Origin: Escherichia phage BF17
Length of the DNA: 64,000 nucleotides
Strand: one strand, 5' to 3'
Sequence record: MW822008.1
Part shown: piece after piece, positions 4,866 to 55,984 of the stretch
Layout of the letters: each line of letters starts with the position of its first letter
Numbering within the stretch: the stretch's first letter is position 1
The notes under the pieces: model-generated
Told to the model about the DNA's origin: nothing
Seen by the model: the letters and a program-made list of their open reading frames with translations, nothing else
The model's database searches: none
Translations under genes and position numbers: made by a program

Positions 4866-6830
4866 ATGGCTAAGAAAGAAAGTGCTGTTCTTCAGGAACA
4901 TGATGTACAACGTCTAAACGATTATCAACATGCTCGCTTACGTACTGAGATGTATCTGGGTTCACGTTCTGTTCACGAAAGTCAAGTACTGATCTTTGGT
5001 GAGTCTGGATATGAAGTTAAAAACGTTGAGTGGGTTCCTGCAATTCTAACTGCTACTCGTGAAATTATCGATAACAGCTTAGATGAATTTAAAAAAGCTG
5101 GAACAAAAGAGCCAGTACTCAAAGTTGATTTCAATGAAGAAGAGTTATCCTTTGAGATCAGTGATAATGGTCGTGGTATTCCAATTGACTATGTTCCTGA
5201 GTATCAGAAAAATCTATGTACAATGGTAATGACTGAAACTAAAACTGGTCGCAACTTTGATGACTCGAAGCGTGATGAAACAATCGGTCAGAATGGATTG
5301 GGTGGTTCAGTTGCAATGATTGTAAGTTCTAAAGCTGAACTTGAAATCCATCGCCAAGGTCGCCCGTATAAAACACAAAGTAGCAATGACGGATATGACG
5401 GTTTTTATAAGTTCAATCAGAAGTTCGAAGAAGGAACTATTATGTTTCCTGAACTTCATGTACATGAACCAACTATTCGTAAGGTTCAAGCAGATAAGAC
5501 TGGAACAACAATTCGCTTCACTCTGAGTTCTGAGGTATTTCCTAACCGTAAACTGCCAACCGAATTGTTATACAGTATTTTGAAAGAAATGTCTGCTGCT
5601 AACCCTACCTATAAGATTTTCCTTAACGGTAAGCGTATTGCAATTAAAGGAACTACTGAAAAAGCACTATTCAACGCATCTAAACTGATGCAATTGAACG
5701 TTAAAGATGAATCATTCAACTTTAACAGTACTTTCTACATTGTTCCTAATGCAGTATCGGGTATGAACAATAACTTCCATATGCATGGTTTGGTTAACAA
5801 TGCCCCAGCATTTGATGGTGGTACACATCTTGATACATTCAAGAAATTCTTCTCATTAGGAGTAGGAACTGCTCTAGAGAAAGAATCAAAGAAACGCAAG
5901 ATGAAACCTAACCGCTCTGATATTGAAGAAGGTCTGTTGATTTATAACGTAACAACGATGAAAGCACCATCATTCAACTCACAGATTAAATCAAAACTAA
6001 CCAACGAAAACGTTATTCGTCCAATTCAACAAGCGATGAATTCTGAATGGTTCGATGAATTAGTCAAGAAGAACAAAGAGTGGATTGATGAAATTTTTGA
6101 ACGCTGTGCTGCTCGTACCAACAAGAAAGATGCAGAAGAAGATCGCCGTCTAGCTAAAAAACTACTGAAAGGTAAAGTTGCAAAACTATTGGACAGTACA
6201 GGTACGGATCGTTCCAAATGCATCCTACTAATTGCTGAGGGTGATTCTGCTATTTCCAACATGGCGAGTGCTCGTGATCCTAAAGTTCATGGTATTCTAC
6301 CATTGCGTGGTAAAATTATGAACGTCAGTGGTAATGAGAAAACCAAAGAATTAATGGATTCAATGGCATTGCATGATATAATGGCGAGTATCAACCTGAT
6401 TCCTGGTGTAAAAGCGGAAAGAGCAGACCTTAACTATGGTAAGCTTTATATCTGTGCCGATGAAGATGAGGATGGAAAGAACATTGGTGCTTTAGTATGT
6501 AACTTCCTATACAAATTCTGGCCTGAACTATTCCAAGACCCAGAGAATCCATTTGTGTATATATTCAAAACACCATTCATCATTCTAGAGAAAGGTAAGG
6601 AATCCAAGTACTACTATGGTCATGATGTACATGAATACAACCCAGATGATTGGAAAGGTTGGAAAGCAACCCGTGCGAAAGGATTGGGTACGTTAGAAAA
6701 AGCAAACTTCCGTGATGCATTCACTAACAGTGTTACAGTAGCGATCACTGATGATGGACGTCTTGGTGAAACACTTGATTTGATTTTCAACAAGAAACGT
6801 GCAGATGATCGTAAGAACTGGATGGAATAA
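4866..6830 (+). CDS. 39: DNA topoisomerase II large subunit (GyrB-like ATPase plus Toprim; T4 gp39 and gp60 equivalent as a single ORF)
   Basis: GHKL box ISDNGRGIP; Toprim LLIAEGDSAISNMASARDPKVHGILPLRGKIMNV; ICADEDEDGKNIG. Confidence 0.85.
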   Translation: MAKKESAVLQEHDVQRLNDYQHARLRTEMYLGSRSVHESQVLIFGESGYEVKNVEWVPAILTATREIIDNSLDEFKKAGTKEPVLKVDFNEEELSFEISDNGRGIPIDYVPEYQKNLCTMVMTETKTGRNFDDSKRDETIGQNGLGGSVAMIVSSKAELEIHRQGRPYKTQSSNDGYDGFYKFNQKFEEGTIMFPELHVHEPTIRKVQADKTGTTIRFTLSSEVFPNRKLPTELLYSILKEMSAANPTYKIFLNGKRIAIKGTTEKALFNASKLMQLNVKDESFNFNSTFYIVPNAVSGMNNNFHMHGLVNNAPAFDGGTHLDTFKKFFSLGVGTALEKESKKRKMKPNRSDIEEGLLIYNVTTMKAPSFNSQIKSKLTNENVIRPIQQAMNSEWFDELVKKNKEWIDEIFERCAARTNKKDAEEDRRLAKKLLKGKVAKLLDSTGTDRSKCILLIAEGDSAISNMASARDPKVHGILPLRGKIMNVSGNEKTKELMDSMALHDIMASINLIPGVKAERADLNYGKLYICADEDEDGKNIGALVCNFLYKFWPELFQDPENPFVYIFKTPFIILEKGKESKYYYGHDVHEYNPDDWKGWKATRAKGLGTLEKANFRDAFTNSVTVAITDDGRLGETLDLIFNKKRADDRKNWME

Positions 6831-6880: not shown

Positions 6881-8293
6881 ATGGCTAAAAGTAAAAAAAC
6901 CGAAAATCAAAGCATCGATAACCAAACACTAACTCTACTAGATTATAACAGTTCTGATTATGTGAATACCACATCACTAGAATATTCAATGTACACACTA
7001 GACCGTGCAATCCCTGGGATTGATGGCCTTAAGAGTTCACAGCGTAAAGCAATCTTCACCCTCTCAAAAGTTAGTGGTGAAATCAAAACTGTATCATGTG
7101 CTGGTAAAATGATTAGTGATGGTATCTATCTACACGGTGATACATCTGCATCTGGTACTCTTCAGAACCTAGCATCACCAGTCGTAAACAACTACCCACT
7201 CATTGGTAAACGTGGTGGTTTTGGTACACAAGTAAACAGTACTCCAGCTTCTGCTCGTTATACTTATGTTAAAAAGAATAAAAGTACTGAAATGTTAGTA
7301 CTGCGTGACTCTGACATTATTCCAATGAAAGAGAACTATGATGGTACTACAATGGAACCAAGTTTCTTTTTACCTATTATCCCACTATCTTTGTTTGGTA
7401 ACGATAGTATGTCAGTAGGTTATAAGAGTACAATTCTACCACATAAGATTGAAGATGTTATTGATAACTGTATTCGTGCTATTGATAAAAAACCATTAAA
7501 AGAAATGACTCCATACTATGTTTCATGTGGTGCAAGTGATATCGTAACTAAGCTTGATGAAAACAAATATGAGTTCTATGGTAAAGCACAAGTAATTGAT
7601 GCCAGTACTGTTAAAGTAACAGGTCTACCACCTAACTACAGTATTGAGAAATTCATCGAGAAACTCATTAAGATGAGCGATGATGGTGATATTCGTGATT
7701 ATGATAATGATAGTACTGATGTTATTGATATTACAATCAAATTGCCACGCGGAACATCTGCTAAATGGGTGGAGAAAGATGTAATTGAATACTTTGGCAT
7801 TCATAAGAAGATGACACAAATCCTAACTGTTCTAGGTGAGAATGGTAAGGTTAAAGTCTATGATAACACAATGGATTTGATTAAGGACTTTGTTGAATTC
7901 CGTTTCAAATACTATGTGAAACGCTATGAGAAGAAACTTGATGATTGTGCTGCTGAAGTACGTTATAAGATTCTAATCAAAGAATGTTTTGATAATGATA
8001 TGATTGCTAAGGTTAAGGGTTTTGCTAACCGTTCAGAAATGGTTGAGTTTGTTAAATCATTAAACACTGAAATCGAAGCAACCGATGAGAATATTCAAAG
8101 CATCGTAAACTTCCCATCATATCGTTGGACCCAAGACAATTATCAATCAGTACTAGCTGATATTCAACATAACTTGGATTTAATGGATGAATATAACAAT
8201 CTCCTGTCGAATCATGATTTGATTTGGAACATCTATAAAGATGAGTTGAAAGAACTACGTAAGATTGACTTCACGCCAAAAACTGAAGATTGA
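6881..8293 (+). CDS. 52: DNA topoisomerase II medium subunit (GyrA-like breakage-reunion domain; T4 gp52-like)
   Basis: N-terminal YSMYTLDRAIPGIDGLKSSQRKAIF resembles GyrA [24 protein letters not shown]; follows gp39-like gene. Confidence 0.75.
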   Translation: MAKSKKTENQSIDNQTLTLLDYNSSDYVNTTSLEYSMYTLDRAIPGIDGLKSSQRKAIFTLSKVSGEIKTVSCAGKMISDGIYLHGDTSASGTLQNLASPVVNNYPLIGKRGGFGTQVNSTPASARYTYVKKNKSTEMLVLRDSDIIPMKENYDGTTMEPSFFLPIIPLSLFGNDSMSVGYKSTILPHKIEDVIDNCIRAIDKKPLKEMTPYYVSCGASDIVTKLDENKYEFYGKAQVIDASTVKVTGLPPNYSIEKFIEKLIKMSDDGDIRDYDNDSTDVIDITIKLPRGTSAKWVEKDVIEYFGIHKKMTQILTVLGENGKVKVYDNTMDLIKDFVEFRFKYYVKRYEKKLDDCAAEVRYKILIKECFDNDMIAKVKGFANRSEMVEFVKSLNTEIEATDENIQSIVNFPSYRWTQDNYQSVLADIQHNLDLMDEYNNLLSNHDLIWNIYKDELKELRKIDFTPKTED

Positions 8294-12659: not shown

Positions 12660-13613
12660 ATGACTACATTATGGACTGAAAAATACCGCCCACTAACTAT
12701 GGAAGATTATGTATCTAAGAACGAAGCCCTACGTCAGAAGATGGAAGAATGGATTCGTACTGGTGATATCCCACATATTGGATTTTTTGGACCAGCAGGG
12801 ACAGGTAAAACTTCAGCAATCAAAGTACTACTGAATGGTCTGGAAGCTAACGGACACCTTGACCCTAGTGATGTAACAACACTGAATATGTCAGATGAAG
12901 GTATCGATGCTGTTCGTGATAAAATTGACGCAGCAGCAAAACTATCATGTTTTGGTCGTTATCGTGTATTTGTTCTGGAAGAAATGGAACAAATGAACCA
13001 CAAAGCACAGGGTAGCTTGAAACGTGTCATGGAAGATTACCATGAAAATGCTCGTTTCATTCTTACCAGTAATGAACCACATAAGATTCAGAAACCTATT
13101 ATCTCGCGTGTTCAGGTCATCACCATTGAGAAGCATGATATGGAACAATTTATGTCACGCATCTACAACGTACTATTAGCAGAAGGAGTAGATCTAAGTA
13201 CTGATGAAAGTATTGAGCAAGTACAAAAATACATCAATGCTTCATATCCTGATTTCCGCAAAACGCTAAACGTATTGCAAAGTTCAGTAGTCGATGGTAA
13301 ACTTGTAAAACTAGAAGACAGTATTGAGAACTCTGCTGGGTATCGTACTGCCATTATTGATGCACTAAAAGCTGGTAACATTCGTCAAATGCGTGAGCAG
13401 ATCGTGCAAAACATTCCTGATGATGAGATGGATGCATTCTTCTCTTATCTGTATCGTAATGCAGAAATGTTCAGTACTGATGAAATTACTCTAATGAAAA
13501 TTAAGGTTAAGATTCGTGACGCTGTTGTTAAACAAGCTACCGTGTCTGACCGTGAAATGAATCTCAGTGCATTACTGTGTGAGATTGACCTAATCTGTTC
13601 GGGGAACATGTAA
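12660..13613 (+). CDS. 44: clamp loader ATPase subunit (RFC small subunit / T4 gp44-like AAA+)
   Basis: N-terminal WTEKYRP, Walker A GPAGTGKTS, SYPDFRKTL matching gp44 NFPDFRKTI. Confidence 0.8.
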   Translation: MTTLWTEKYRPLTMEDYVSKNEALRQKMEEWIRTGDIPHIGFFGPAGTGKTSAIKVLLNGLEANGHLDPSDVTTLNMSDEGIDAVRDKIDAAAKLSCFGRYRVFVLEEMEQMNHKAQGSLKRVMEDYHENARFILTSNEPHKIQKPIISRVQVITIEKHDMEQFMSRIYNVLLAEGVDLSTDESIEQVQKYINASYPDFRKTLNVLQSSVVDGKLVKLEDSIENSAGYRTAIIDALKAGNIRQMREQIVQNIPDDEMDAFFSYLYRNAEMFSTDEITLMKIKVKIRDAVVKQATVSDREMNLSALLCEIDLICSGNM

Positions 13614-17633: not shown

Positions 17634-17662
17634 TTGACAGTACTGAGTGTTGCCTGTAGAAT
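17634..17662 (+). promoter_or_regulatory. sigma70-like early promoter with CAGTACTG palindrome
   Basis: ttgaca 17634-17639, tagaat 17657-17662; lies inside ORF-track start 17634, so real start is downstream. Confidence 0.6.
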
Positions 17663-17708
17663 GTTTATCACTGAGCAACACTATCTTAAATTAACTGAGG
17701 AATACACA

Positions 17709-18851
17709 ATGTCCGAGAAAGAAATCAATCCGAAAAAAGCAACAGTTAAACAAGCCAAAGCAACCAAAACTGCCAAACGTACTACCAAAACAGCAGCACA
17801 CACAATTGACGCAACTGATATCTTCGAACAACAGTCCAAGTCACTTCCAGTACTGAAAGATACTAAAGGCAACAGTATGGCGTTAACTGTGCAGAATATT
17901 AATACCATCGGGACCACTGCTGGGGCAGGTGTAGGACGTTTGGCTGATGAAATCATGTCAAAAGTTAACGTCACTGATGATAATACTGAATTCGGTAAGT
18001 CTATTACTACTATCTTGACATTGACACGTGCAGTTGATATTGATAGTCTACAGGATGATAAATCAATCGTAGGCTGGGTCAAAAAACTCTTTGTTAATGC
18101 TAAACAGAAAGTTGGCGATCAGTACAAAAACAGTAAAGAACAAATTGATGAAATCATGAACACTCTTCAGGTTGGTATTAACCGCCAGCATGGGGAATGT
18201 GCATGGCTAGACACTGCTTACAACGAAAACAAAAACTATCTCTTTGAACTGCGTGATACGTTAGTTGAGTTGGAAGAAGTTACCAAAGCACAAGATGCTG
18301 AATTGGTAGCAATGCAAGCGAACCCTGACGTTGATTCTTTTGCAATCCAGGAGCAAAAGATGATTTGTGAAGCTCTTTCTAAACAGGAAGATAAGATTCG
18401 TCGTCTTATCATGATGTGTGAACTGAGCGGTCCTCGCCTGATGAGTATGAAGAAAGTAAACCTCAACACTGTTTCTAAGTTTGAGGATTTGAAATCAGTT
18501 GTTATTCCAGCATGGAAATCACAATTGGCTGAACAGTTGATTTCCGAACGTCAACGTAAAGACAATGAGTTGGGTAATCTGATTGACAATGAAACTAACC
18601 GTTTACTCGAAGTAAACTCTAAAATGGTAGCAACTAACATGTTGGATGCTGCTAAGGCAAATAATCGTGGTATCGTGGATATTAAAACATTGCGTAATGT
18701 ACACAAAACAATGATTGATAGCATCGAAGCAGTACTGATTGAAGAGAAGAAAGGTAAAGAAGAGCGTGAGCGAGCAAAGATTGAAATCGCAAAACTCTCT
18801 CATGAACTTGAAGATACTCTTCGTGAAATTGCTGAAAAAGCTAACAAGTAA
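17709..18851 (+). CDS. hypothetical coiled-coil protein
   Basis: ATG 17709 with RBS gagg downstream of the promoter; ORF-track start 17634 rejected. Confidence 0.55.
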   Translation: MSEKEINPKKATVKQAKATKTAKRTTKTAAHTIDATDIFEQQSKSLPVLKDTKGNSMALTVQNINTIGTTAGAGVGRLADEIMSKVNVTDDNTEFGKSITTILTLTRAVDIDSLQDDKSIVGWVKKLFVNAKQKVGDQYKNSKEQIDEIMNTLQVGINRQHGECAWLDTAYNENKNYLFELRDTLVELEEVTKAQDAELVAMQANPDVDSFAIQEQKMICEALSKQEDKIRRLIMMCELSGPRLMSMKKVNLNTVSKFEDLKSVVIPAWKSQLAEQLISERQRKDNELGNLIDNETNRLLEVNSKMVATNMLDAAKANNRGIVDIKTLRNVHKTMIDSIEAVLIEEKKGKEERERAKIEIAKLSHELEDTLREIAEKANK

Positions 18852-29341: not shown

Positions 29342-29393
29342 ATAAGATGCTATAATGTATTATAGTACCTTAACAATATAAAAAGGATTTTAT

Positions 29394-30254
29394 ATGAAAC
29401 CTATCAGAGTACTGTCACTTTTTAATGGAATGAGCGTTGGATATATGGCATTGGCAGATGCAGGTATTCCAGTTGAAAAATATTACTCATCTGAAATTGA
29501 CAAGTACGCAATTGCTGAATCTTCCGAGAATTTTCCTGATATTATCCAGTTAGGTGATGTGACTAAGTGGAAAGAATGGGATATTGAGTGGGATAAGATA
29601 GATTTACTCATGGGAGGATTCCCATGTCAAGCCTGGTCTGTTGCTGGTAAGCAAGGTGGCTTGAATGATATACGTGGACAGTTATTTTTGGTTATGGTTG
29701 ACATTTTTGAGCACATCAAAAGTGTAAATCCAAACTTGCAATTTCTGTTCGAGAATGTTAAAATGAAGGAAGATTTCAAAGAATACATTAATAGTATTTT
29801 AGGAATCACACCAGTACTGATAAATTCCCAGCATTATACGCCTCACTTCAGGCAGAGATACTACTGGTGCAGTACTGATAAGCTTTTTATACCACCTGCA
29901 TTATCAAATGCCCCTAAACTTCAAGATATCATTGAAGATGGTTGGTACACTGACAGAACCGCTTCGTACTGTATAGATGCTAACTATTTTAAGGGTGGTG
30001 ATTGTAACCAGTACTTTAATAAATCAAGACGACAGTTGGTGTTTCGTGACCCAACGATTAATCGTCAATATCTATTGGAGAATGGTAAAAGAAATATTGA
30101 CTATAGACACTTAAGTGTAGTAGAATGTTGTAAATTACAGGGTATTCCTGTAGATTTCTTTAAAGTGTCTAGTAAGACACAAGCATACAAAATGCTTGGG
30201 AATGGATGGACTATGCCAGTTATATCACACTTACTAAGAGAGATATTCTTTTGA
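29394..30254 (+). CDS. DNA (cytosine-5)-methyltransferase, compact
   Basis: Motif I FNGMSVG, motif IV GGFPCQAWSVAGK, motif VI FLFENV, motif VIII-like FRQRYYW. Confidence 0.65.
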   Translation: MKPIRVLSLFNGMSVGYMALADAGIPVEKYYSSEIDKYAIAESSENFPDIIQLGDVTKWKEWDIEWDKIDLLMGGFPCQAWSVAGKQGGLNDIRGQLFLVMVDIFEHIKSVNPNLQFLFENVKMKEDFKEYINSILGITPVLINSQHYTPHFRQRYYWCSTDKLFIPPALSNAPKLQDIIEDGWYTDRTASYCIDANYFKGGDCNQYFNKSRRQLVFRDPTINRQYLLENGKRNIDYRHLSVVECCKLQGIPVDFFKVSSKTQAYKMLGNGWTMPVISHLLREIFF

Positions 30255-30256
30255 AC

Positions 30257-30736
30257 ATGAAGAACTACCCCACCTATACTGAACGTGTAATGAAATTTCA
30301 ACGTCAGTCATCAAAGGAAGAATTAGAATTTAATTTGTACTATCCTAATATTGGTGATGAGGTATTCTATTGTTCTCATACAAAGAATGGAACTTTACTT
30401 AAATCTGGTAAAGGTATTATTGTTGATATGATTAGAACTTTCAAAGGTAAACTTAATGTAATGTACAAAGTACAAGATTCAAGTACTGAGTGCATTCATG
30501 AAGTGATGCATAATATACCTGCATATCCAAAGGATTTTGTTGAGCTAATATCTCGAAGGGAGAAACCTATGTTTTATTGTGGTTATGACAAACTAACCAA
30601 ACAAATTATTCCTAATACTATGGGAAAATTTAAAAGTGATGTTAAAACTGAACTTAATAAGAAATTAGGTTCATCATGGGAAACTGAAAACGAATTCATC
30701 GAAATTCGTTTGATTGAAGTTACTATACTCGATTAA
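30257..30736 (+). CDS. hypothetical protein
   Basis: ATG 30257 right after MTase stop preferred over ORF-track 30206. Confidence 0.5.
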   Translation: MKNYPTYTERVMKFQRQSSKEELEFNLYYPNIGDEVFYCSHTKNGTLLKSGKGIIVDMIRTFKGKLNVMYKVQDSSTECIHEVMHNIPAYPKDFVELISRREKPMFYCGYDKLTKQIIPNTMGKFKSDVKTELNKKLGSSWETENEFIEIRLIEVTILD

Positions 30737-49083: not shown

Positions 49084-50241
49084 TTATGCGTTATAACCAA
49101 CAATGACTACAGTACAGCCAAATGGTTCAACAACTTTTAATACAACATTATCATCTGCATCGAGTTCAACTTCACTTAGAACAACATGATTGTCTTCAGC
49201 ATATACTTGAACTTGTGGGAGGATTTTACCATGTTCACTGACAGGAATGGACAGTGTGTACATAGAATCACCATCAACTACCCAATCACTATCGGTATAC
49301 GTGTTGTGATATGGAGTGGTGTGTAAGGTTTTACCAATAATACTCAATGAGATTGGAGCGTCATCAGTTTGGTACACAGTAATATTACCGCTAGGATCTA
49401 CAATGAGGTCTACTCCAATTTGGAATAAATCACCACTGTATGCTTGTAGAGCAAGATACTCACCACGCTCATGCACAGTAGCTGGTACAGTTGCCATGTA
49501 CATACCATCGGACGTGTACTCAAACTGAGATAGAAGTACTGAAGTAACGAAGTCAATATCTTCTCCGCTTTCTAGTATATCAAATTCAATAGTTTTGGTA
49601 TTATATATGTCAGAAGTGAGTATGATGGTTCCTTTACCGGATTGAGTAATTGGATCAACTGGAATACTAAAAACATCATCAATTATTTCAGTTGTGAAGT
49701 ACTCGGTTCCGTCAGGAAGTATAACGGTAATACGCATTCCAGTTGTATCAATGGCTGAACCTGCGTTGAATAGGCGACCACCTACCAAATCATCACCTAC
49801 GAACGTTGGGGACATAAGGATGTTGTCTATATCTCTATCTATAATCCCGCATTCAGGGGTGTACATATTATATAGTGTTTGTGAACTACCTAGAATTGTT
49901 TTGTGCAAAAGAAACTTATAAACAAACCCAGTAGGATCTGATTCAAGTTTAGCATCTGAGTATCCTCTTACGAAAAAAGAGTTCTTTCTTATTTCACTTA
50001 GGATTTGGTCATTAGTTTTGTTGTAGTTTAATTGATATCCTTGTATATCCTTTGTTGTAATTTGTACTTTACGATAAATTACATTACTTACAGGATCAAG
50101 TAAATCATATAATCTATGGCTTCTCTGACGATAGATTCGAACATTTTTGAGTTTAGTCCCATCGTTGAGAATTGCACCATCGACTACATATCCACATTCA
50201 CCGAACTTATATCGTCCAGCAGCAGCAATCGATCTTGACAT
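49084..50241 (-). CDS. hypothetical protein (385 aa), only minus-strand gene in window; possibly structural
   Basis: Long minus-strand ORF, convergent with 48224..49039. Confidence 0.55.
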   Translation of the reverse strand: MSRSIAAAGRYKFGECGYVVDGAILNDGTKLKNVRIYRQRSHRLYDLLDPVSNVIYRKVQITTKDIQGYQLNYNKTNDQILSEIRKNSFFVRGYSDAKLESDPTGFVYKFLLHKTILGSSQTLYNMYTPECGIIDRDIDNILMSPTFVGDDLVGGRLFNAGSAIDTTGMRITVILPDGTEYFTTEIIDDVFSIPVDPITQSGKGTIILTSDIYNTKTIEFDILESGEDIDFVTSVLLSQFEYTSDGMYMATVPATVHERGEYLALQAYSGDLFQIGVDLIVDPSGNITVYQTDDAPISLSIIGKTLHTTPYHNTYTDSDWVVDGDSMYTLSIPVSEHGKILPQVQVYAEDNHVVLSEVELDADDNVVLKVVEPFGCTVVIVGYNA

Positions 50242-55015: not shown

Positions 55016-55984
55016 GTGAAAAAGCTTGATTTAAATGCAATTTCTGAAGAAGTACTGGATGAGTGTTTTGCTAGTGAAGAAGTCAACGTATTAGAGGCTC
55101 TTGATTCCGTCGAAGAAGAAGAAGAACATGACGGTCACAAGTTTGAGAAACCAAAAACAGGTATCAGCTTAACTCGCCCTAAAGGGATAACGAATGAAAT
55201 GCTCATCCAAGCAGTGCGTGATGGTATTGACGTTGAAAAGAACATTGACCTTTTGGTTCGCTACAACTATCCAATGGTAGTAAGTGTTGCACGTAAGTGT
55301 ACATGTTTTATCCCATTTGAAGATAAGATTTCTTATGGTGTTGAAGGTTTAATGCGAGCAATTCATACGTTCGACACTACCAAAAATGTTAAGTTCATTA
55401 CATATGCAACAACAACTGTGTACATGACAATCTATAACGAAAGTGCAGATGCTAATTATCTAGTGCATTTCCCACGTTATATGAGTGTTAATAACATTTA
55501 TGTGAAACGTTGTGTAGAAGAGTATCAAAGGAAACATGGTAAATACCCAACTCCTGAGATGGTGTCAAAAGAGACTGGTATTGAGATTCAACACGTTAAG
55601 AATTGTCTAACTTACAATAACACTTATGTAGCATTGAATATGAAAATGAGTAATGATTCAGAAAGTACATTATCTGACATTGTTACTTCAGTTGAACCTG
55701 ATTACAACTTAGGCGTAGAAACTGTCAGTACCCCACTGGTACAAAGTATTGCAGAAATGATGAGTAACCTATCTGCCAAAGACCGTGAATTGATTGAACG
55801 TGTACATGGTATTGGTTCTTATTCTGAACCAGAAACGCTACGAGAAATCATTGAGAGTGGTTTTGAAGATGAGAAGGGTAAGGTCATGACTGCTCGTTCT
55901 TCATTGCACCGCAAGTACTCTGAAGCAATGGAACGTCTTCGTAAGATGGTGAAGACGCAAGGTTACGAGTTCGAAGATTTTTAA
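55016..55984 (+). CDS. sigma-70 family RNA polymerase sigma factor (regions 2, 3, 4)
   Basis: Region 2 LLVRYNYPMVVSVARK...YGVEGLMRAIHTFD...KFITYATTTV; region 4-like C-terminus; GTG start with RBS aggaga. Confidence 0.7.
   Translation: MKKLDLNAISEEVLDECFASEEVNVLEALDSVEEEEEHDGHKFEKPKTGISLTRPKGITNEMLIQAVRDGIDVEKNIDLLVRYNYPMVVSVARKCTCFIPFEDKISYGVEGLMRAIHTFDTTKNVKFITYATTTVYMTIYNESADANYLVHFPRYMSVNNIYVKRCVEEYQRKHGKYPTPEMVSKETGIEIQHVKNCLTYNNTYVALNMKMSNDSESTLSDIVTSVEPDYNLGVETVSTPLVQSIAEMMSNLSAKDRELIERVHGIGSYSEPETLREIIESGFEDEKGKVMTARSSLHRKYSEAMERLRKMVKTQGYEFEDF

Follow-up and report, generated by a model that had tools for sequence, protein, structure and literature searches.

A compact, solitary C5-cytosine DNA methyltransferase gene in Escherichia phage BF17 and related jumbo phages: predicted activity and a probable role against restriction

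A 64,000-nucleotide (nt) stretch of DNA from Escherichia phage BF17 (sequence record MW822008.1; hereafter the window) carries a gene for a compact C5-cytosine DNA methyltransferase. The coding sequence occupies positions 29394..30254 of the + strand, stop codon included, and runs from an ATG to a TAA codon to specify a protein of 286 amino acids (aa). It is the only long open reading frame (ORF) at this location, and the complementary frame, when checked, was full of stop codons. These limits and this protein length are exactly those given by a first-pass annotation that had been made from the sequence alone. The coding sequence also corresponds to one annotated in Escherichia phage fEgEco12 (279943..280803), whose protein (XBS49537.1) is identical. 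Thus, the gene is correctly called, but it is already annotated and ordinary.

An AAGGA Shine-Dalgarno sequence (29383..29387, + strand) was read 6 nt upstream of the ATG. Direct reading of the 52-nt gap 5' of the gene also revealed an extended -10-like box, TGCTATAAT (29348..29356, + strand). By its sequence, this box is weakly indicated as a candidate promoter for host sigma-70, and it may act early in infection. Because its -35 hexamer is poor, the box was missed by a consensus promoter scan.

Profile searches place the protein among the C5-cytosine DNA methyltransferases. Pfam model PF00145 matched with an E-value of 4.7e-37 and 128.6 bits, against a gathering cut-off of 22, and TIGR00675, the 'dcm' superfamily model, matched with 117.2 bits, against a cut-off of 100.65. 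A search of this kind had been proposed in the first-pass annotation as a check on the family, and both scores lie above curated cut-offs. PHROG_116, described as 'DNA methyltransferase', covers the whole protein (E=1.2e-58), and the MTase_II (type II) and orphan-methyltransferase models of PADLOC match as well. The methyltransferase domain spans residues 2-285 of the 286.

An AlphaFold2 model, built from an alignment of 50 homologues, has a predicted local distance difference test (pLDDT) score of 92.7 and a predicted template modelling (pTM) score of 0.90. Only the catalytic loop scores lower, and the same loop is mobile in solved enzymes. The model has the two-lobed fold of the family, consisting of a Rossmann-type catalytic domain and a small recognition domain. 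A fold search against BFVD returned generic viral C5 methyltransferases only. The identification of the product as a compact C5-cytosine DNA methyltransferase is therefore upheld by profile, structure and conservation, and no other family dependent on S-adenosylmethionine (SAM) was assigned.

The motifs of the family occur in canonical, non-permuted order (I, IV, VI, VIII, IX and X; all on the + strand). In the alignment of 50 homologues, which extends down to ~50% identity, every residue known as catalytic in the C5 methyltransferase family is invariant. Motif I, FNGMSVG (aa 10-16; 29421..29441), is the SAM-binding loop, with F10 and G12 invariant, and takes the F-x-G-x-x-x-G form that is common to DNMT3 (FDGIATG). 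Motif IV and the catalytic loop, GGFPCQAWSVAGK (aa 74-86; 29613..29651), contain the invariant P77 and C78. The catalytic nucleophile, Cys78, is encoded by the TGT codon at 29625-29627. Motif VI, FLFENV (aa 117-122; 29742..29759), supplies Glu120 of the ENV triad, and E120, N121 and V122 are all invariant. Motif VIII, FRQRYYW (aa 152-158; 29847..29867), supplies Arg153 and Arg155, has R153, R155, Y157 and W158 invariant and lines up with RARYFW of DNMT3B.

These are the four motifs that the first-pass annotation had quoted, and they are present in the order that it gave. Motifs IX and X can now be added to them. Motif IX, YRHLSVVECCKLQG (aa 237-250; 30102..30143), aligns with motif IX of both DNMT3B and M.HhaI and has R238, L240 and E244 invariant. 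Motif X, KMLGNGWTMPVISHL (aa 266-280; 30189..30233), includes the string MLGNGW and has G269 and N270 invariant. Its TQAYKMLGN segment aligns with SQAYKQFGN of M.HhaI, and its W-x-x-PVI-x-HL segment aligns with DNMT3. E34 is also among the invariant residues.

The target-recognition region lies at approximately aa 159-236 (29868..30101, + strand), as judged from the homologue alignment, the high-confidence model and comparison of lengths. Its description as 'very short' proved roughly right, in that the spacing between motifs VIII and IX, counted directly on the sequences, is 79 aa, compared with 104 in M.HhaI and 62 in DNMT3B. Within it, the segment from C193 to F217, CIDANYFKGGDCNQYFNKSRRQLVF (CIDANYFKGG....QYF.KSRRQLVF), is nearly invariant in the 50-homologue alignment and ranks with the best-conserved parts of the clade, whereas such regions normally vary with specificity. 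This near-invariance suggests that the clade probably has one shared short recognition motif despite its many hosts.

The gene is maintained by selection. In comparison with the orthologue in phage 121Q, it shows 49 synonymous and 18 non-synonymous differences, which correspond to a ratio of non-synonymous to synonymous rates (dN/dS) of 0.073. Purifying selection on the gene is therefore strong. This ratio, the intact and invariant catalytic residues and the retention of the gene from Asteriusvirus to RaK2, CBB, GAP32 and Erwinia phages all count against the idea that it is a decaying or inactive relic. Fragmentation of the gene in a few relatives and the lack of evident methylation in digests of fEgEco12 DNA would fit such a relic, which we nevertheless find barely credible.

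The 861-base gene is 99.9% identical in Escherichia phages EC.P1, vB_Ec-M-J, fEgEco12, WPEC3/5 and Ecwhy_1, and ~92% identical in 121Q, PBECO4, G17, Sharanji and others. Carriers in this range of identity are Rak2-like jumbo phages of 350-385 kb in the genus Asteriusvirus. The window, at 99.9% identity to Asteriusvirus jumbo phages, likewise derives from a Rak2-like jumbo coliphage, and the gene is phage-borne, as had been supposed. The identical protein is found on 48 public contigs, where it is named DNA (cytosine) methyltransferase, with deposits from fEgEco12, vB_Ec-M-J, WPEC3/5, Ecwhy_1 and others. The gene is also listed in the papers on RaK2, CBB, Sharanji and UE-S1 (PMC3622015, PMC5259590, PMC11895373, PMC12805682).

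Orthologues in Rak2-like phages, including 121Q gp91 (AIT13988.1), fEgEco12 Gp455 (XBS49537.1) and those of PBECO4, G17, RaK2, CBB and GAP32, are the same gene. They are identical or 63-96% identical, equal in length and located in the same place, downstream of T4-like topoisomerase II and clamp-loader genes. The syntenic orthologue in the more distant RaK2 is gp194 (63% identity). RaK2 ORF445, which also encodes 286 aa, was considered as the orthologue and was rejected as unrelated. The wider family is large, with at least 8000 proteins that reach E<1e-10. A tblastn search retrieved 803 phage records, which include phAPEC8-type coliphages (~50% identity) and Vibrio phage ICP1 (44%).

The Rak2-like orthologues differ only in some intein-bearing alleles and in a few apparent fragments. 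UE-S1 (ON568341.1, 50728-52608), ph0011 and probably A4 have an orthologous ORF of 626 aa with an in-frame insertion of ~340 aa. The insertion is an intein that includes a homing endonuclease, and its Hint (Hint_2) and LAGLIDADG (LAGLIDADG_3) domains score above Pfam thresholds. Its insertion point, GGFP|C...HN|CQAWS, lies directly before the catalytic Cys of the PCQ motif, the same residue as Cys78 of the BF17 protein, and this Cys is the +1 residue. That these alleles keep an intein at precisely the catalytic Cys is understandable only if the phages need the spliced enzyme. The allele in the BF17 window has no intein, and the paper on UE-S1 does not mention one (PMC12805682). Fragments were seen in Salmonella phages SD-6_S16 and SD-1_S14 and in CMSTMSU, in which the methylase matches in two to three pieces annotated at 163-188 aa. 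Frameshifts, pseudogenisation or errors of assembly could each account for them.

Among solved structures searched with phmmer, the catalytic domains of DNMT3B, DNMT3A and DNMT3C are the best matches (E ~1e-23, residues 2-282), whereas M.HhaI matches over the N-terminal half only (E=6.7e-17). Similarly, the best 50 Foldseek matches are all DNMT3 catalytic domains, with a template modelling (TM) score of 0.79. The difference is much smaller in family-profile scores, in which DNMT3B (124.6 bits) barely exceeds M.HhaI (116.6 bits). The phage protein resembles the DNMT3 enzymes in size (286 aa, compared with constructs of ~285 aa) and in the variant of motif I (PIRVLSLFNGMSVGY in the phage enzyme and PIRVLSLFDGIATGY in DNMT3). 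It also has in common with them PIRVLSLFxGxxxGY, RxRYxW (RQRYYW compared with RARYFW), W-x-x-PVI-x-HL and a short recognition region.

Other features set the phage enzyme apart from DNMT3. It has no PWWP or ADD regulatory domains at its N terminus, and its catalytic loop, PCQAWSVAGKQGG, is as in M.HhaI instead of PCNDLSIVNPARKG. The dimer-interface loop that in DNMT3 holds R882 (DNMT3A) or R823 (DNMT3B) is shortened by two residues in the phage enzyme and is HhaI-like (SKTQAYK). Residues mutated in crystal entries (DNMT3A R836A; DNMT3B K777A, N779A and Q772R) mark the DNMT3-type recognition loop, and those in the DNMT3B-DNA entries presumably take part in CpG reading. In a HMMER alignment that is moderately reliable in this region, only K777 of DNMT3B has an equivalent in the phage enzyme (K200), and N779 and Q772 line up with Gly202 and Asp195. 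Thus, neither the recognition-loop residues nor the dimer loop is of the DNMT3 type, and the recognition region is 17 aa longer than that of DNMT3B. The protein is a C5 methyltransferase of bacterial or phage type with a DNMT3-like compact build, and we do not call it a member of the DNMT3 family.

M.HhaI and M.HaeIII are the classic small type II C5 methyltransferases of bacteria. The catalytic loop of M.HhaI (GCGC), PCQAFSISGKQKG, resembles that of the phage enzyme, and the start of motif X is nearly that of M.HhaI. However, the phage recognition region is 25 aa shorter and no cognate endonuclease accompanies it, and the recognition loops of M.HhaI (GKGGQGER...TL...) fall in an insertion of the profile alignment. 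The label 'M.HaeIII' (GGCC) in some GenBank records is a transferred name and not evidence. Escherichia coli Dcm and M.EcoRII (CCWGG) belong to the same superfamily, but the Dcm model NF007772 scores only 20.9 bits against a cut-off of 710, and Dcm, at 472 aa, has a different recognition domain.

The large set of tRNA and translation genes in these phages would suit an enzyme that methylates RNA (tRNA) in the manner of DNMT2. However, the CFT motif that defines DNMT2 (PMC3227630) is absent from the phage protein, DNMT2 matches mainly the N-terminal half and at 1e-9, compared with 1e-23 for DNMT3, and both the catalytic loop and motif X are of the type found in DNA enzymes. Thus, we regard RNA methylation as extremely improbable.

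The likeness to DNMT3 permits a more speculative proposal, to which we give little credence. Outside the eukaryotes, the closest relatives of the DNMT3 catalytic domain may be the enzymes of this compact, phage-restricted clade, which may methylate a CpG-containing motif. DNMT3-like motifs I and VIII, the short recognition region and the C-terminal helix, combined with a catalytic loop of bacterial type and a hint from bisulfite data on RaK2, are the basis of this idea. If it is true, then orphan methylases of tailed phages would be candidates for the origin of the eukaryotic de novo methyltransferase, and the phage enzyme would offer a minimal, monomeric model for DNMT3-type recognition. We found no specific description of a 'DNMT3-like' phage enzyme in the literature.

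The gene resides in a long run of small same-strand genes of unknown function, ~21 kb downstream of genes for a T4-like split topoisomerase II (GyrB/Toprim and topoisomerase IV subunit A domains; 4866-6830 and 6881-8293), a clamp-loader-like AAA ATPase (12660-13613) and a TelA-like toxic-anion-resistance protein (17634-18851). Elsewhere in the window are a sigma-70 region 2/3 protein, possibly a phage sigma factor (55016-55984), and a lone large minus-strand ORF of ~385 aa without a Pfam match (49084-50241). The window is otherwise almost wholly encoded on the + strand.

Partner genes were sought among the immediate neighbours of the methyltransferase gene and the large ORFs of the window. Searches with Pfam, PHROGs and PADLOC detected no nuclease, TET/JBP, glycosyltransferase or defence model among the flanking ORFs, which match only PHROGs without an assigned function. 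The genomic surroundings of five homologues (43-51% identity) were also examined. All five are in phage contigs and none has a restriction enzyme alongside, their neighbours being ligase, RecA, portal, terminase, primase or SMC-like genes. Bacterial restriction-modification (R-M) contexts, considered as a clue to specificity, were thus not available among the five. The BF17 enzyme is an orphan (solitary) phage methyltransferase, as it has no adjacent endonuclease and is encoded by a virus genome, and its lineage is solitary and dedicated to phages.

If the enzyme were instead the methylase half of a phage R-M or toxin-like module, then its nuclease might be a small neighbour such as the 176-aa ORF (PHROG_28599, unknown function) at 30206..30736 (+ strand). 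This ORF overlaps the 3' end of the methyltransferase gene by 49 nt, which suggests translational coupling, and genomes of the Sharanji type are annotated with restriction-enzyme-like genes elsewhere (PMC11895373). However, the 176-aa ORF has no Pfam or PADLOC match and is not recognisable as a nuclease, and the other neighbours are equally without nuclease, Pfam or PADLOC models. In UE-S1 the next ORF does not overlap and is annotated at a different length, and the five homologues in other phages have unrelated neighbours. A module of this kind is very unlikely.

The same scans bear on hypermodification of cytosine. An enzyme of this fold could begin a pathway from 5-methylcytosine (5mC) through 5-hydroxymethylcytosine (5hmC) to a glycosylated base, as with phage TET, or could transfer a carboxymethyl group from carboxy-SAM. 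Neither route finds a partner in the window, where Pfam and PHROG scans of 28 ORFs revealed no TET/JBP, glycosyltransferase or carboxy-SAM synthase (CmoA-like) gene. Moreover, 8yf3 is a weaker match than ordinary methyltransferases (sequence E=0.052), a survey found no TET/JBP in jumbo phages (PMC7824862), and fEgEco12 DNA cuts normally (PMC13070987). We therefore consider hypermodification highly improbable. The first-pass annotation had reasoned that cytosines are not fully replaced by a hypermodified base. Published data are consistent with this, given that fEgEco12 DNA is digestible and that no 5hmC or glucosylation genes were found in RaK2 or CBB (PMC3622015, PMC5259590).

The Rak2-like sequence sampled has been cleared of certain restriction sites. 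Counts were made in 164 kb of Asteriusvirus sequence (the window plus fEgEco12 loci L016 and L017) and in 112 kb of RaK2 (loci L007-L009). GCGC does not occur in the window (27 expected), in the whole Asteriusvirus sample (70 expected) or in the RaK2 sample (36.6 expected). Likewise, CTGCAG is absent from both samples (34 and 11.6 expected, respectively), and CCATGG is absent from the Asteriusvirus sample only (20.5 expected). GATC is reduced to 0.42-0.60 of expectation (0.42 in Asteriusvirus; z about -9 in the window), although these phages encode Dam-like methylases, and CATG is depleted (0.70). GTAC is commoner than expected, with ratios of 1.32 in Asteriusvirus and 1.59 in RaK2. In unrelated phage contigs that harbour homologous methylases, GCGC occurs as often as expected.

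This clade-wide elimination of sites reflects strong restriction pressure. It could be caused by host restriction endonucleases, or by a phage nuclease that spares its own DNA. Because GCGC is absent from the genome, it is not the self-protective target of the methyltransferase. An HhaI-like, GCGC-specific enzyme is also unsupported on other grounds, in that the HhaI recognition loops are unmatched and RaK2 is reportedly methylated even though 112 kb of it lacks GCGC. GGCC was considered as a protected site because it is at expectation in the window, but it was dropped when pooled values proved to be 0.83 in Asteriusvirus and 0.60 in RaK2.

These observations lead to a model in which the gene encodes an active, solitary C5 DNA methyltransferase that is made during infection, possibly early, and methylates phage DNA against restriction. 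We assign this statement as a whole a probability of about 0.75. That the protein is an active C5 DNA methyltransferase is very probable, whereas protection against restriction, although the conventional assignment for such enzymes, is only moderately likely to be its main role.

The reaction can be predicted from the intact motifs and from family chemistry established on M.HhaI and DNMT3. SAM would be bound through motifs I-III, and the target cytosine would be flipped out of the helix. Cys78 of the PCQ motif would then attack C6, with Glu120 (ENV) and Arg153 and Arg155 holding and activating the base. After transfer of the methyl group from SAM to C5, beta-elimination would free the enzyme. 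The compact 79-aa recognition region presumably chooses the sequence. The enzyme would be made during infection, possibly early, from the extended -10 promoter, and would methylate phage DNA as it replicates and, as a side effect, that of the host. Some sites of host type II and type III restriction systems may thereby be masked, which would complement the avoidance of GCGC, CTGCAG and GATC in the same genome.

Reports on methylation in relatives bear on both the activity and the target. RaK2 DNA was resistant to methylation-sensitive enzymes, and bisulfite treatment was reported to reveal 5mC in CpG context, with data not shown there (PMC3622015). RaK2 is also annotated with a Mom-like DNA modification protein, ORF149 (locus L008, 35505-36089), and a small Dam-like methylase, gp447 (L007, 15981-16499). 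Therefore, the restriction resistance of RaK2 need not stem from the C5 enzyme. Nanopore sequencing detected 5mC in Erwinia phages Hallingskeid and Kaldavass, which have orthologues of 76% identity (PMC11780129). The only motifs recovered were GATC and CCWGG in both phages, plus TGCAT in Kaldavass, and the authors were unable to tell the action of host enzymes from that of phage enzymes (PMC11780129).

Several points weigh against an active, protective enzyme. SexAI is sensitive to dcm methylation, and NruI and ClaI are sensitive to CpG methylation, according to standard sensitivity tables. Virion DNA of fEgEco12, which encodes the identical protein, was reported to be cut as predicted in silico by ten enzymes, including these three (PMC13070987). 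The methyltransferase may modify few or no sites in packaged DNA. In the Erwinia phages, the sole 5mC motif is CCWGG, for which host Dcm could account (PMC11780129). In the BASEL study, exceptional sensitivity to the R-M systems tested was reported for a group (PMC8594841) that includes the phAPEC8-type phages, which carry methyltransferase homologues of ~50% identity. Finally, the fragmented relatives may indicate that the gene is dispensable there, unless the breaks are assembly errors.

The three published data sets, on RaK2, the Erwinia phages and fEgEco12, conflict over the recognition sequence of the enzyme. Virion DNA of Asteriusvirus is unlikely to be globally methylated at CpG, CGCG, TCGA or CCWGG. 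It may be modified at a rarer or different motif, only in part, or in a way that depends on the host.

The unmodified appearance of fEgEco12 virion DNA at several methylation-sensitive sites (PMC13070987) would also be expected if the enzyme acts on DNA but serves mainly for something other than protection. It might mark phage DNA for replication, packaging or the timing of transcription, or it might mark or damage host DNA to distinguish self from host. A recognition region that hardly varies among phages with very different hosts is unlike one that tracks host-specific R-M systems, and the lineage already copes with restriction by removing sites outright. However, scans of flanking and window ORFs found no gene for a 5mC reader or effector nearby, orphan phage methyltransferases with conserved short motifs are classically protective, and RaK2 DNA is reported to resist methylation-sensitive enzymes (PMC3622015). 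We judge a mainly non-protective role unlikely and retain methylation of phage DNA against restriction as the preferred explanation.

As a gene call, the finding is minor, given that database entries from dozens of Asteriusvirus isolates already contain this protein, correctly named. In evolutionary terms, the structural similarity to DNMT3 is a modest curiosity. For the use of these jumbo phages in therapy, the methyltransferase and the total avoidance of GCGC and CTGCAG help to define the host restriction systems that the phages evade. A 5mC mark would, in turn, expose them to methyl-dependent restriction of the McrBC type.

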